Below are positions 259-6,628 of a stretch of 7,352 nucleotides of DNA, piece after piece. Numbering within the stretch: position 1 is the stretch's first letter; each line of letters opens with the position of its first letter. The position numbers and the translations under genes were made by a program. The DNA lies in IMG/VR virus record IMGVR_UViG_2563366829_000008; one strand, written 5' to 3'. The notes under the pieces are model-generated. The model searched no databases, was not told where the DNA came from, and saw only the letters and a program-made list of their open reading frames with translations. The DNA comes from a virus (Duplodnaviria; Heunggongvirae; Uroviricota; Caudoviricetes).

Positions 259-684
259 ATGAAAATCAGGCATGAGCACATCCGCATGGCGATGAATGCC
301 TGGGCGCATCCGGACGGTGAAAAAGTTCCGGCAGCTGAAATAACCCGGGCTTATTTTGAGCTTGGTATGACGTTCCCGGAATTATATGACGACAGCCATC
401 CGGAAGCCCTGGCTCGCAATACCCAGAAAATTTTCCGCTGGGTGGAGAAAGACACTCCTGATGCGGTTAAAAAAATTCAGGCGTTGTTACCAGCGATCGA
501 AAAAGCAATGCCGCCTCTGCTGGTGGCCCGAATGCGCAGCCACAGTTCAGCTTATTTTCGGGAGCTGGTGGAGACGCGGGAACGACTGGTGAGAGACGCT
601 GATGATTTTGTCGCAGTGGCGATCGCTGGTTTCAACCAGATGAATCGTGGTGGCCCTGCAGGAAATATTGTGGCTGTGCATTGA
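259..684 (+). CDS. ydaT: YdaT-like protein (PF06254 family; reported functional analogue of lambda CII in Rac-type prophages)
   Basis: 141-aa ORF with GGAG 7 nt upstream of the ATG. N-terminus MKIRHEHI and C-terminal ...VH, length and position immediately before the replication initiator gene match my recollection of YdaT proteins. Family assignment is from memory. Confidence 0.65.
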   Translation: MKIRHEHIRMAMNAWAHPDGEKVPAAEITRAYFELGMTFPELYDDSHPEALARNTQKIFRWVEKDTPDAVKKIQALLPAIEKAMPPLLVARMRSHSSAYFRELVETRERLVRDADDFVAVAIAGFNQMNRGGPAGNIVAVH

Positions 685-755: not shown

Positions 756-1796
756 ATGGCTAACGCCTGGCTCAGATTATGGCATGACATGCCAAATGAC
801 CCTAAGTGGCGAACAATTGCCAGGGTGTCAGGGCAGCCAATTGCAACAGTGATGGCAGTGTATATCCACCTTCTGGTGAGCGCGTCACGAAATGTCACGA
901 CATGTCACGGCGTGTCACTACGTGGTCACATTGATGTCACGACGGAAGATTTAGCAAGTGCGCTTGATGTGACGGAAGAAGTAATTGATTCAATTTTACA
1001 GGCAATGCAGGGGCGGGTACTTGATGGAGATTTAATCACCGGATGGGAAAAACGCCAGGTACTGAAAGAGGACAATGGCAACGTTTCACAAACCGCGAAA
1101 TCCCCGGCAGAGCGCAAGAGAGCGCAGCGCGAGAGGGAAAAATTACGAAAACAGAATGAGGGGTGTCACGACGAGTCACGCATATGTCACGACATGTCAC
1201 GACGAGTCACGACAGATAAAGATACAGATAAAGAATTAAACCCCACACATAACGCGCACGTGCGCGAGAGTGCTCCGACCAGTGAGTCGAGTGGTACGCC
1301 GTTGCAGGCAGCAGAACCTGCATCCCTGGATGGACTGAGCGAACCCATCGGGAAATTTCCGATGGTCGATGACTGGCATCCGTCGCCGGATTTTCGACGA
1401 CGGGCTGCGTTGTGGGGGATGGCTTTGCCGGAGCCGGAATTTACACCTGCTGAACTTGCCGCTTTCCGGGACTACTGGGCAGCGGAGGGGAAAGTTTTCA
1501 CGCAGGTTCAGTGGGAGCAGAAATTCGCCCGTCACGTAAATCACGTCAGGGCGCAGGTTAAGCCAGTCAGCAAGGGGGTAAACCATGCAGCAGCACCAGG
1601 TGGCACCGCATCACGGGCAGTTCAGGAAATTCGGGCAGCACGTGAGCAGTGGGAACGTGAAAACGGATTTATCAGCGACGGAAACGGTCTGGAAGCTGTG
1701 GGAACTCATGGGGGAGGTTTATTCGAACCGCTGGACCCAGAAGAACGGGGCCGCACCTTCGAAGCTCTGGATTGCACAGATTGGCGCGATGACTGA
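756..1796 (+). CDS. Phage replication initiator (O-like) with DnaT-like C-terminal ssDNA-binding domain; 3' end uncertain (overlaps next gene)
   Basis: ATG at 756 preceded by AGAAGAGG (the track's 750 start is a GTG two codons upstream). The C-terminal region GKFPMVDDWHPSPDFRRRAALWGMALPEPEFTPAELAAFRDYWAAEGKVFTQVQWEQKFARHV closely parallels the E. coli DnaT C-terminal region ([29 protein letters not shown]...[20 protein letters not shown], recalled). The coding sequence contains two iteron clusters, as with ori-lambda inside O. Confidence 0.75.
   Translation: MANAWLRLWHDMPNDPKWRTIARVSGQPIATVMAVYIHLLVSASRNVTTCHGVSLRGHIDVTTEDLASALDVTEEVIDSILQAMQGRVLDGDLITGWEKRQVLKEDNGNVSQTAKSPAERKRAQREREKLRKQNEGCHDESRICHDMSRRVTTDKDTDKELNPTHNAHVRESAPTSESSGTPLQAAEPASLDGLSEPIGKFPMVDDWHPSPDFRRRAALWGMALPEPEFTPAELAAFRDYWAAEGKVFTQVQWEQKFARHVNHVRAQVKPVSKGVNHAAAPGGTASRAVQEIRAAREQWERENGFISDGNGLEAVGTHGGGLFEPLDPEERGRTFEALDCTDWRDD
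884..942 (+). repeat. Iteron cluster 1: six GTCAC(G/A/T) core repeats at about 10-11 bp spacing
   Basis: GTCAC cores start at 884, 894, 904, 914, 925 and 936 (spacings 10, 10, 10, 11, 11), i.e. one per helical turn, embedded in the initiator ORF (encodes ...SASRNVTTCHGVSLRGHIDVTT...). Confidence 0.75.
1165..1240 (+). repeat. Iteron cluster 2 (five GTCACG repeats) plus adjacent AT-rich stretch; candidate phage origin of replication core
   Basis: GTCAC cores start at 1165, 1175, 1186, 1196 and 1206 (spacings 10, 11, 10, 10), immediately followed by AT-rich gacagataaagatacagataaagaattaaa (1211..1240). This is the lambda-ori layout of iterons then an AT-rich unwinding region inside the O gene. 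Confidence 0.7.
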
Positions 1797-2250
1797 GCAG
1801 CAAATCCGACAGGTCTGCCGCCAGTGCATGGACCGCTGCCGGGCGGGTGAAACATGGCCTCCGGACCTGGCTGAGTTTGTGGCGCTGATTTCAGAAAGCG
1901 GGGCCAATCCATTTGGCCTGACGGTGGATGCTGTGATGGAGGAGTACCGCCGCTGGCGTGATGAGTCCTGGCGATATGACGGAAGCGACAAATATCCGTG
2001 GCCTCAGCCTGTGCTGTACCACATCTGCCTCGAAATGCGTACCAGAGGGATTGAGCGCCAGATGACGCAGGGTGAGTTAAAACGACTTGCGGAACGGCAA
2101 CTGACGAAATGGGCAAAGCATGTTGGTAACGGGATGAGTGTTCCGCCAGTGCGACGACAACTGGAAGGGGCGAAACACCCGCAAGGGCCAACGCCAATTG
2201 AACGGCTGAAACAGGAATACGAACGCCGGAAGGCAGCTGGTTTTATTTGA
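1585..2250 (+). CDS. Lambda P-like replication protein (DnaB helicase loader)
   Basis: 221-aa ORF; ATG 1585 preceded by AAGGGGG at 7 nt. Blocks such as PPDLAEFVALI and YPWPQPVLYHICLEMRTRGIERQMTQGELKRLAERQL parallel lambda P (PGQFVAWC... and YPWKSNAHYWLVTNLYQNMRANALTDAELRRKAADEL, recalled). The first 212 nt overlap the upstream ORF out of frame, so the true start could be later (e.g. ATG 1708). Confidence 0.75.
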   Translation: MQQHQVAPHHGQFRKFGQHVSSGNVKTDLSATETVWKLWELMGEVYSNRWTQKNGAAPSKLWIAQIGAMTEQQIRQVCRQCMDRCRAGETWPPDLAEFVALISESGANPFGLTVDAVMEEYRRWRDESWRYDGSDKYPWPQPVLYHICLEMRTRGIERQMTQGELKRLAERQLTKWAKHVGNGMSVPPVRRQLEGAKHPQGPTPIERLKQEYERRKAAGFI

Positions 2251-3648: not shown

Positions 3649-4335
3649 ATGACCCCAATAAAAATATTTATGACTATTGCTGATTTCAAACGGCCTAAAT
3701 TGGAGCTCCCAAACGGGGCAAACAAACTACTACTGCACTCTTGCTGTGCTCCATGTTCCGGTGAAGTGATGGAGGCGCTTCAGGCCTCGGGAATCGACTA
3801 CACCATCTTTTTCTACAACCCGAACATTCATCCTCAGAAAGAGTATTTAATTCGTAAGGATGAAAATATTCGCTTTGCTGAACAACACGGCGTGCCGTTT
3901 ATCGATGCTGATTACGACACCGACAACTGGTTTGAACGTGCCAAAGGAATGGAATGGGAGCCTGAGAGGGGGATCCGTTGTACCATGTGTTTTGACATGC
4001 GTTTTGAGCGGACAGCGTTGTACGCTGCTGAAAATGGTTTCAGTGTGATCAGCAGTTCACTGGGCATTTCACGCTGGAAAAATATGCAGCAGGTTAACGA
4101 GTGTGGGCGGCGAGCTGTTGCGCATTATCCGGGTATGGTGTACTGGGATTATAACTGGCGCAAGCAGGGCGGCTCGTCCCGTATGATTGAAATCAGCAAG
4201 CGCGAAAAATTCTATCAGCAGGAATATTGTGGCTGTGTGTATTCTCTGCGCGATACCAATCTACACCGCAAATCTCAGGGACGCCCTCTTATCAAAATTG
4301 GCCAACTCCACTACGGAAAAGAAGAGAAGGAGTGA
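3649..4335 (+). CDS. queH: Epoxyqueuosine reductase QueH (DUF208 family)
   Basis: Contains the motifs I recall as QueH/DUF208 hallmarks: [37 protein letters not shown] and YCGCVYS (conserved Cys cluster). Start uncertain: ATG 3649 or ATG 3670, neither with a strong SD. Confidence 0.85.
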
Positions 4336-4396: not shown

Positions 4397-4449
4397 GGCT
4401 GCGGGTGCTTGAGGCTATCTGTCTCAGGCATGAACACTGAAAGGCAGAT

Positions 4450-4524
4450 AGAGAAAAGCCCCAGTTAACATTTCGCGTCCTGCAAGACGCTTAACATTAA
4501 TCTGAGGCCCAATCTATGTCTCAC
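4450..4524 (-). ncRNA. sok: Candidate Sok-like antisense RNA covering the mok SD and start codon (inferred)
   Basis: Inferred from hok/sok architecture. Minus-strand promoter-like TTGCCT-N17-TAACCT (plus coordinates 4559..4531) would start transcription near 4524. The antisense transcript spans the mok RBS (GAGG 4504..4507) and ATG 4516, contains the hairpin GCGTCTTGCAGGACGC, and ends in CTGGGGCTTTTCTCT. The -10 is weak; boundaries approximate. Confidence 0.3.
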
Positions 4525-4728
4525 AAATGTAGGTTAGCCTCTTACGTGCCGAAAGGCAAGGGGAAGCAGGCTATGAAGCAGCAAAAGGCGATGTTAATCG
4601 CCCTGATCGTCATCTGTTTAACCGTCATTGTGACGGCACTGGTAACGAGGAAAGACCTCTGCGAGGTACGAATCCGAACCGGCCAGACGGAGGTCGCTGT
4701 CTTCACAGCTTACGAACCTGAGGAGTAA
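4516..4728 (+). CDS. mok: Mok-like reading frame (N-terminally extended, in frame with hok; translational coupling element)
   Basis: 70-aa ORF; ATG 4516 with GAGG 8 nt upstream. It is in frame with hok and has a 19-aa basic extension (MSHKCRLASYVPKGKGKQA), the same layout as E. coli MokC (69 aa with HokC at its C-terminus, recalled). Confidence 0.55.
   Translation: MSHKCRLASYVPKGKGKQAMKQQKAMLIALIVICLTVIVTALVTRKDLCEVRIRTGQTEVAVFTAYEPEE
4573..4728 (+). CDS. hok: Hok/Gef-family type I toxin (HokD/RelF-like small membrane peptide)
   Basis: 51-aa product MKQQKAMLIALIVICLTVIVTALVTRKDLCEVRIRTGQTEVAVFTAYEPEE: a single TM helix plus the conserved CE.R..G..EVA.F.AYE motif of Hok family toxins. As far as I recall it is essentially identical to E. 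coli HokD (RelF). Confidence 0.85.
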   Translation: MKQQKAMLIALIVICLTVIVTALVTRKDLCEVRIRTGQTEVAVFTAYEPEE

Positions 4729-4893: not shown

Positions 4894-5544
4894 ATGAATG
4901 AAAATCAGTTAGCTCCTTGTTGGGAATTTCAACCTTATCTTGCTGAAAACTATGTTCGCCACTTGTTGGCGGAGATCGCTAACGTACTTGAGCAGCTGTA
5001 CTATCATAAGCACGCATTAGACAGCAACTGGTCTGAAGGTGTAAGGGCTTATGATTGGGTCAGAAATCATCTTATTCAAAATGAAGATGCAATTCCTGGC
5101 CTTGAGATGATTTCCAAGGGGTTGGACTATGTAGTTGCTTTAAATAAAGTTCCGCTACAATTTACCAAAGATTGCATTAATAACCCCAAAAAGAAACATC
5201 GTCTGCGTCGAAATAAAGTAGAGTATGAGCAGCTCTCATTGTTTGGTGATGTTGAGGCTGAGCAAGATATTACATGGCGAGTCATAGCTGAGCCTTTTTT
5301 ATCCGAAGAGGGCGATGGTGAATTAGAGTCCACACTGCCTCGTTGGGAGGTAGCTCTTGTTGGATTTAATACTTATGGTGCTCAGATTAGTATAGTTTCT
5401 CATCAATCTACAGCATCGATGCCGCTTATGCCTCTTGATTATAACACACTCCCTGACGAAGCGGAGATTAATAAGGTGCCTCTTCGTCGGCGTACGAAGG
5501 ATAAAGATTTGGATGTGAGCAGTGATGGAACATCAGGTGAATAA
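4894..5544 (+). CDS. Hypothetical protein, 216 aa, no recognisable domain; first gene of AT-rich cassette (candidate toxin/effector partner)
   Basis: Long ORF in visibly AT-richer DNA than the flanking phage genes. Its stop (5542..5544) lies 20 nt inside the next gene, indicating translational coupling. Acidic C-terminal third; no catalytic motif recognised by eye. Confidence 0.75.
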   Translation: MNENQLAPCWEFQPYLAENYVRHLLAEIANVLEQLYYHKHALDSNWSEGVRAYDWVRNHLIQNEDAIPGLEMISKGLDYVVALNKVPLQFTKDCINNPKKKHRLRRNKVEYEQLSLFGDVEAEQDITWRVIAEPFLSEEGDGELESTLPRWEVALVGFNTYGAQISIVSHQSTASMPLMPLDYNTLPDEAEINKVPLRRRTKDKDLDVSSDGTSGE

Positions 5545-6628
5545 CTTCACTGAGTATCGGGGTGATAAGCTCAAACTAGCGAGAATGGCTGTTGGGCTTT
5601 CTTGTGAAGAGTTAGCCGAAAAAATTGGCAAGACAAAGCAATTCGTTAGCAAACTGGAGAAGGGGTGCAGGCCATCGGAGCAATGTCTTGAGTTAATATC
5701 TTCAGCGCTTATGATTAAGTCCAGTTTTCTTTTTACTGAACGAAAATACGCTCTGGAAAGTGATGTCTGCCATTTTCGGAGTAAGAAGTCCAGGACTCAA
5801 ACGCTGACTAATAGTGTATTGGCCAGGGCTGAGATTCTTAATATTATAATTTCTGCTGTTGAAGGTGAAATCGAATTTCCTGACGTTAACATACCGGAGC
5901 ACCCAGGGGCTGAATTACTTACTCCGAATGATATTGAGCGAGTGGCAGAAGATTGTCGCCGTGCCTGGAATTTAGGTCTTGGCCCTATATCATCAATGGT
6001 TAAATTGGCGGAGAGTTTAGGGGTAATCGTTGCGCATGTTACGGGAGTCGATGATCGTGTTGATGCTTTTACTGTTCACAATAACAGGCCTGTTATCATC
6101 AGGAACAATGTTAAAAAAAGCATATGTAGATTTCGCTCTGATTTAGGTCATGAATTAGGGCATTTAGTAATGCATGAGGGCATAACGACAGGTGATAAAC
6201 TTACGGAATCACAAGCCGATCACTTTTCGAGCGCCTTATTAGTTCCCAGGTTATCTTTCATTAAAGAATTTCCACGAATACGAGGTAAGCAATTCGACTG
6301 GAATGCTCTGGTTGAATTTAAACTTAGATGGAAAATCAGCCTTAAAATGTGTATTTATCGAGCCAGCGCATTAGGCTTATTGACCCAGGAACAGGCAAGA
6401 ACTGGCTATATGCATCTTAATTCCAGAGGGTATACGAGAGTTGAACCTGGTGATGAACTTTTGCGCCCTGAAGAACCCGGCATGCTGGCCGAGGCGATTG
6501 AAATGCTGGATGATGCAACCTGGCTAAGAATTCTTATGAAAACTGGCTTGAGCCAAGATTTAATTCGTGAGTTGTTCTCCATCAACAGACCTATTACAAA
6601 TCCAAGAAATATTTTCCAGATTGTTTGA
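5525..6628 (+). CDS. XRE-family HTH domain fused to ImmA/IrrE-family (COG2856 / M78-like) zinc metallopeptidase domain
   Basis: N-terminus LKLARMAVGLSCEELAEKIGKTKQFVSKLEKG is a classic XRE HTH. HELGH (HExxH) at 6149..6163 followed by E...ADHFSSALLVP matches the ImmA/IrrE signature. ATG 5525 (the track's 5522 is GTG). Confidence 0.85.
   Translation: MEHQVNNFTEYRGDKLKLARMAVGLSCEELAEKIGKTKQFVSKLEKGCRPSEQCLELISSALMIKSSFLFTERKYALESDVCHFRSKKSRTQTLTNSVLARAEILNIIISAVEGEIEFPDVNIPEHPGAELLTPNDIERVAEDCRRAWNLGLGPISSMVKLAESLGVIVAHVTGVDDRVDAFTVHNNRPVIIRNNVKKSICRFRSDLGHELGHLVMHEGITTGDKLTESQADHFSSALLVPRLSFIKEFPRIRGKQFDWNALVEFKLRWKISLKMCIYRASALGLLTQEQARTGYMHLNSRGYTRVEPGDELLRPEEPGMLAEAIEMLDDATWLRILMKTGLSQDLIRELFSINRPITNPRNIFQIV

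Follow-up and report, generated by a model that had tools for sequence, protein, structure and literature searches.

Positions 884-1240 of the window, by which we mean the whole 7,352-bp stretch of DNA analyzed here, probably constitute the replication origin of a Qin/Rac-like lambdoid prophage, located within the gene that encodes its own initiator. This region carries two arrays of short direct repeats phased with the DNA helix. The downstream array (array B) and the A-rich tract that adjoins it are the likely core, and the reading of these two elements as an origin is well supported by the sequence comparisons presented below; the upstream array (array A) is a putative accessory element. 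The initial annotation had proposed an origin inside the initiator gene, in which helically phased iterons precede an AT-rich element, and that proposal now finds support. The window lies in a lambdoid prophage of the Qin/Rac-like type that carries dicB and ydfA-D on the upstream side of the window and Q, RusA, and tRNAs on its downstream side, and many E. coli chromosomes are 100% identical to the window. Its features are the following.

1 to ~230: end of an IS3 element, at the left edge of the window
259-684: YdaT/CII-like gene
756-1796, plus strand: initiator gene, 346 amino acids (from the ORF list), annotated by PGAP as "DnaT-like ssDNA-binding domain-containing protein" (WP_001262415.1)
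884-941, plus strand: iteron array A, six copies of GTCAC(G) at 884, 894, 904, 914, 925, and 936 (spacing of 10, 10, 10, 11, and 11 bp)
1165-1211, plus strand: iteron array B, five copies of GTCACG at 1165, 1175, 1186, 1196, and 1206
1211-1240, plus strand: A-rich, purine-rich tract, a candidate DNA-unwinding element, encoding DKDTDKE
1253-1266, no strand assigned: perfect 14-bp palindrome CGCGCACGTGCGCG, a short distance to the right of the A-rich tract
1356-1556, plus strand: DnaT-like domain of the initiator (amino acids 203-269 of the ORF that starts at 750; PF17948, E = 9.6e-18)
1708-2250, plus strand: lambda-P-like helicase-loader gene (PF06992, E = 5e-16; phrog_109, "P-like helicase loader")
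4403-4728: hokD/sok type I toxin-antitoxin (Rfam sok, 120 bits, at 4403-4578, plus a HokD ORF; PGAP)

The eleven GTCAC-core repeats that had been reported in two clusters at 10- to 11-bp spacing were confirmed both by their positions on the plus strand and by Tandem Repeats Finder, which returned period-10 arrays at 884-929 and 1164-1214. Both clusters are real, and their ends required small corrections: array A ends at 941 rather than 942, and array B ends at 1211 rather than 1210. GTCAC is concentrated in these arrays, which hold 11 of the 13 plus-strand copies in the whole 7,352-bp window. The longer core GTCACG is present in nine of the 11 array copies and occurs 10 times in 740-1800, including a stray copy at 1531. 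The longest phased 5-mer run in the initiator gene has six members, and the maximum in 2,000 shuffles of the gene was three. The spacer between array A and array B is 229 bp long. No sigma-70 promoter was found in or near the arrays within 600-1500.

Since the repeat unit is 10 or 11 bp long, GTCACG is read in all three frames and yields V-T, C/G-H, and S-R peptides, just as expected from the earlier suggestion that the repeats impose VTT/CHD/SRR-type segments on the protein. A period that is not a multiple of three marks the repetition as a feature of the DNA and not as a peptide repeat. Two of the six repeats in array A (21 bp, seven codons, encoding TCHGVSL) are extra relative to most relatives, and because they amount to seven whole codons, the reading frame is preserved.

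Array B is directly followed by the A-rich tract. The AT-rich stretch that the initial annotation had placed at 1211-1240 proved to be exactly the 30-bp duplex with the lowest stability in the initiator gene, and the second lowest in the whole window, when nearest-neighbor energies were calculated. The 40-bp segment 1200-1239 has a GC fraction of 0.35, and the 12-mer ACAGATAAAGAT occurs twice inside the tract, at 1212-1234. Phased direct repeats, an adjoining AT-rich region of low stability, and an initiator encoded in cis make up the general anatomy of an iteron-type theta origin, and all three are found here.

From its N terminus onward, the initiator is composed of a predicted winged-helix domain and a basic helix, which a disordered linker joins to a DnaT-like domain. 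In PHROG it falls into replication-initiation families 1408 and 3729 (E = 1e-117 to 1e-93), with weak matches over amino acids 3-165 to phrog_4880 "replisome organizer" (4e-5) and phrog_10469 "DnaD-like" (2e-7), and its relatives are named "phage replisome organizer" by NCBI. The protein had been described as O-like, a label that does not hold. Pfam Phage_rep_O gave no match to the whole protein at E ≤ 0.01 or to amino acids 1-135 at E ≤ 10, Phage_rep_org_N matched neither the whole protein nor amino acids 1-135, and the sole Pfam match in the N-terminal 135 residues was a weak Crp-type helix-turn-helix (amino acids 57-86, E = 0.03). The C-terminal part is instead DnaT-like and is presumed to be a partner-recruiting or single-stranded-DNA-binding module. 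Against the NCBIfam DnaT model NF002770, positions 80-166 alone match (E = 7e-28), and with 97 bits versus an equivalog cutoff of 201, the initiator fails as a full-length DnaT equivalog.

The N-domain was also compared with known proteins at the level of profiles and folds. Profile comparison with SPP1 G38P by hhalign, in which the template was a single sequence, gave no match; a profile search of PDB sequences gave no relevant match; and a Foldseek search of the PDB with the N-domain model returned winged-helix matches, none of which was significant. The AlphaFold2 model of amino acids 1-165 has a mean pLDDT of 71, with values above 90 in the helical core, and contains three helices, a hairpin (amino acids 47-56), a helix-turn-helix (63-84), a wing (85-95), a basic helix (117-134), and a disordered tail from 136 onward. 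We therefore regard the N-domain as an unclassified, predicted winged-helix domain, and since it has no significant match to lambda O, G38P, or a solved structure, its predicted DNA binding rests on a model of medium confidence. Array A encodes amino acids 44-62, the beta-hairpin/loop before the helix-turn-helix, and array B encodes amino acids 137-152, the start of the disordered linker, to which the A-rich tract also contributes. Both arrays map to loop or linker segments that are modeled with low confidence and are thus located where the protein can tolerate them.

This initiator family is large, with 1,007 protein clusters matching the N-domain at E ≤ 0.001 and prophage hosts among the Enterobacteriaceae, Pseudomonas, Aeromonas, Bordetella, Chromobacterium, Ralstonia, Xanthomonadales, and others. 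N-domain relatives were collected from phage records and from one genome per species, giving 75 loci with 33-100% protein identity, and an unbiased search was made for any 5-mer phased at 9-12 bp, with equal-size control windows taken from the same loci. A phased run was present at the array-B position in 67 of the 75 loci and at the array-A position in 53 of the 75; in the control windows the count was 31 of 762 (4%). The pair formed by array B and an A-rich tract was likewise found in 67 of the 75 related loci. Within the 40 nt past the last array-B repeat of these 67 loci, the mean AT fraction was 0.66 versus a background of 0.42, and the mean purine fraction of the coding strand was 0.76 versus 0.54 (p ~1e-12). 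The tract usually consists of hexamer repeats that depend on the lineage (GATAAA, GATACA, GAGACA, or GAAGCA) and that encode runs of DK, DT, ET, or EA dipeptides.

The initial annotation had regarded the upstream cluster as unusual and had suggested a comparison with the origins of related phages. That comparison bore out array B as a recurrent element and corrected the view of the second array as an oddity: of the 67 loci with array B, 41 had the same 5-mer phased at least three times in region A as well, versus 0 of 698 control windows. Judged from these loci, the two-array layout is the conserved norm in this initiator family. About 18 loci have array B alone and about 8 have no array, from which it follows that array A is dispensable for the family.

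The core sequence varies by lineage, and both arrays switch together, a co-variation that is confounded by shared ancestry and includes only about three to four independent core switches. Four cores were found, all sharing the register NNNACG.

GTCACG: enterobacterial, Pseudomonas, Aeromonas, Bordetella, and Chromobacterium elements
CGAACGC: Janthinobacterium, Massilia, Rhodoferax, and others
GCAACG: Ralstonia phage Firinga
GTAACG: one Pantoea element

In two loci (L145 and L154) the A and B cores are partly unlike. The distances between arrays A and B (249, 258, 267, and 270 bp) differ by multiples of 3, and the helical phase between the arrays shows no clear conservation. A scan of viral contigs returned relatives with at least 92% identity in every case and is informative for copy-number polymorphism only; close relatives have four or six copies in array A and four or five in array B. 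An inverted twelfth copy of GTCAC at 969-973 was considered as a third origin element and rejected. It occurs in 24 of the 31 GTCAC-class loci and in none of the 10 GAACG-class loci, and GTGAC is kept in the GTAAC-class locus; from this distribution over the iteron classes, the inverted copy is most likely a by-product of conserved LDVT codons.

One lineage carries its upstream array at a different place in the gene. In four Xanthomonadales-type loci (L150, L153, L154, and L155), a GTCAC array is inserted between helices 2 and 3, as an insertion of at least 8 amino acids at about +65 to +112 of the gene, and the position that holds array A in E. coli is without an array. Whether by retention or by re-creation, an upstream array is thus present irrespective of where in the protein it falls. 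In L154, the upstream array has six copies at 9- to 10-bp spacing, and array B is mostly GTGACGC.

We propose the following course of initiation. The core origin would consist of array B, with its five GTCACG copies at one per helical turn, and the A-rich tract at 1211-1240. The N-terminal winged-helix domain of the initiator would occupy successive repeats in head-to-tail order along a single face of the helix, and the resulting nucleoprotein complex, together with supercoiling, would melt the A-rich tract. The DnaT-like C-terminal domain could then recruit the lambda-P-like loader with host DnaB. Array A would serve as a second binding array for the same N-domain and would join the complex by looping of the ~230-bp spacer. 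As some relatives are without array A, we see it as a candidate accessory element that may tune origin firing.

A different role for array A is possible, although we think it unlikely: it may lie outside the origin as a negative-control element that handcuffs with array B in cis or in trans, titrates the initiator, or acts as a transcription roadblock on the initiator and loader genes. In such a role it would parallel incA and incC, the iteron arrays of plasmids P1 and F. Its specificity matches that of array B, and its location within the 5' third of the gene is ahead of all that needs to be transcribed. It is dispensable in about one-fourth of the relatives, in relatives from GC-rich hosts it comes without an A-rich tract of its own, and its variation between four and six copies among close relatives would also suit such a role. 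The in silico data, however, would be the same for positive and negative action of array A, and copy-number control is less obviously needed in lytic phage replication than in plasmids. With comparable hesitation, we consider a bipartite origin of an undescribed kind, in which arrays A and B, written into permissive loops of the initiator, would both be required in cis as a looped double complex. The hexameric A/purine tract would then be not merely meltable but a sequence-specific landing site for the initiator on single-stranded DNA, analogous to the DnaA-trios beside DnaA boxes.

Returning to the origin built on array B with array A as an accessory, the arrays appear to be maintained at the level of DNA. 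Across 20 GTCAC-class genes, the conserved fraction of third-codon positions was 0.87 inside the cores versus 0.56 elsewhere in the N-domain (p = 2e-7), which points to selection acting on the DNA of the arrays. The array-A peptide differs between iteron classes (SRNVTRGH, NASANATERG, or TATQGNADATRGN), indicating that the DNA dictates the peptide and not the reverse. These data make it very improbable that the repeats bind no protein and are slippage products tolerated in flexible protein segments and kept alike by gene conversion between the arrays. Such an origin for the repeats would be in keeping with the loop or linker position of both arrays, with a copy number that moves in in-frame 21-bp steps, and with the microsatellite-like hexamer tract next to them. 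Against it, synonymous sites are conserved inside the cores, the core and its 10- to 11-bp phasing persist from 98% down to ~34% protein identity, the array stands at another gene position in one lineage, and array B adjoins DNA of low stability, namely, the A/purine-rich tract in the loci that have array B and the least stable duplex of the gene in the window.

The replication genes are mosaic, and the joints show what the iterons travel with. Across positions 700-1234, the window shares ~88% identity with Tritos, Evi, and similar phages, whose C-domain differs, and positions 1214-2300 are ~90% identical to ydaU/ydaV of Rac-SA53, where the N-domain is different and GTCAC repeats are absent. 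The window thus has the N-domain and iterons in common with Tritos, but not the C-domain, and has the C-domain and the P-like gene in common with Rac-SA53. From these joints it follows that the iterons are inherited with the N-domain. The iteron class tracks the N-domain clade, and among loci of one iteron class the neighboring genes vary, leaving the N-domain as the only constant partner. That association makes it highly unlikely that a different factor (a host protein, or the phage YdaT/CII-like or DUF1627 HTH protein) binds the arrays while the true origin lies elsewhere, even though the DNA-binding activity of the N-domain is a prediction and several HTH proteins are encoded close by.

The joint at which N- and C-domains recombine coincides with the A-rich hexamer tract, at 1212-1240 in the window, 3490-3530 in L001, and 2995-3030 in L002. 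The presumed unwinding element therefore doubles as a site of domain shuffling. The palindrome at 1253-1266 was rejected as a part of the iteron system; it goes with the Rac-type C-terminal module. A related GC palindrome is present in Rac-SA53, which is without GTCAC iterons, and is absent from phage Tritos.

The iterons of phage lambda are ~19-bp units with dyad symmetry that are bound by dimers of O. The initial annotation had seen the arrangement in the window as a mirror of ori-lambda, and the layout inside the gene does agree. Like ori-lambda, the proposed origin lies in the initiator gene at the boundary between a DNA-binding N-domain and a loader-recruiting C-domain. In each, the iterons precede an A-rich tract that is biased toward purines on one strand, and beyond this tract comes a palindrome, although this resemblance is functional only. 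The two also have in common that N and C domains recombine at the origin and that a loader gene of the lambda P family lies downstream; the P-like gene recognized earlier is genuine by its PF06992 match. The comparison with lambda fails at the repeats themselves, which in the window are 10- to 11-bp direct repeats with an asymmetric GTCACG core, one per helical turn. In addition, the initiator of the window has no O-family sequence match and has a DnaT-like C-domain, and its gene contains two arrays 229 bp apart, whereas lambda has one.

Phage P4 (ori/crr), P1 (oriR/incA), and F (ori2/incC) have two separated arrays of the same iteron that are served by one initiator and that loop or handcuff. 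The window likewise has two separated arrays of one iteron. In those systems, however, the arrays are found on either side of the initiator gene or at a distance of kilobases from it, whereas both arrays of the window lie inside the coding sequence, ~230 bp apart, in protein loops. Staphylococcal RepA_N plasmid initiators, such as RepA of pSK41, have iterons in their own gene that are bound by an N-terminal winged-helix domain. PDB entry 4pta was among the weak fold matches of the N-domain (E = 1.6, not significant). The window's initiator differs from pSK41 RepA in that there is no significant sequence or fold match, and the RepA_N proteins are Gram-positive plasmid initiators with another C-terminal partner. 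In phage SPP1, oriL lies in gene 38, with repeated boxes bound by G38P beside an AT-rich unwinding element (PMC5737612). The repeats of the window are likewise inside the initiator gene and beside a candidate unwinding element. A quick repeat scan of gene 38 found one mid-gene repeat region and not two matching arrays, and SPP1 differs further in having its second site, oriR, far off in the genome.

A search of the open-access literature, which is weak evidence because subscription journals were outside its scope, found no description of these iterons or of the origin of this family. As far as we found, the placement of both arrays within the coding sequence, written into protein loops, has not been previously described. 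The family offers a clean case of a DNA signal that overrides protein sequence, in which the peptide is set by the array and the array can take up a place in another loop. It also explains the shuffling of initiator domains at the A-rich tract. These origins hold a ready-made specificity code, in which no fewer than four iteron classes are each matched to a separate N-domain clade, and because classes and clades are paired, both recognition and the role of the second array can be tested by swaps. A practical use lies in annotating prophage origins and the types of replication modules.

In 1585-1796, the initiator ORF shares its DNA with the long P-like ORF, which is read in another frame, and PGAP starts the P-like gene at 1789. 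Among 49 related sequences, variable sites in 1585-1700 fit the initiator frame better. In 1701-1788, the variable sites number 2, 3, and 12 at codon positions one, two, and three of the P frame and 12, 2, and 3 at those of the initiator frame. Because these substitutions fall at the third position of the P frame, the P-like gene probably has its start near the ATG at 1708 rather than at 1789 and would then overlap the 3' end of the initiator gene, whose last ~30 codons look unconstrained.

Several further observations concern the copies of this module in databases and in the source strain. Database copies of the initiator are very often "partial," some with hundreds of member sequences, which hints at frequent breaks within the initiator gene in draft E. 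coli assemblies; the repeats could be the cause, or the presence of several related prophages per genome. In phage 204576 (L005, 2001-2560) and Pseudomonas phage PACT201 (L009, 1968-2560), the initiator frame is frameshifted and both arrays are intact; these frameshifts could be sequencing errors or could mark decaying genes. In strain MS 196-1, an IS3-family element is inserted between the cro-like (YdaS) and YdaT/CII-like genes, and in other strains the match begins at 231. In the source strain, the element separates the replication module from the promoter on the cro side, so this copy may be cut off from its early promoter and may be silent.

Downstream of the loader gene, the gene order is DUF1627, DUF977/Ren-like, QueH, hokD/sok, an ORF of unknown function, and an HTH-M78 gene. 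QueH (epoxyqueuosine reductase, 3649-4335; Pfam E = 1e-65) is unusual cargo for a prophage early region, where it lies beside the replication module. At 4894-6628, a 216-amino-acid ORF without a Pfam match overlaps the start of the HTH plus M78 (ImmA/IrrE-type) peptidase gene, and a tandem repeat with a 20-bp unit at 6141-6183 falls within the metal-binding motif region of that peptidase gene.
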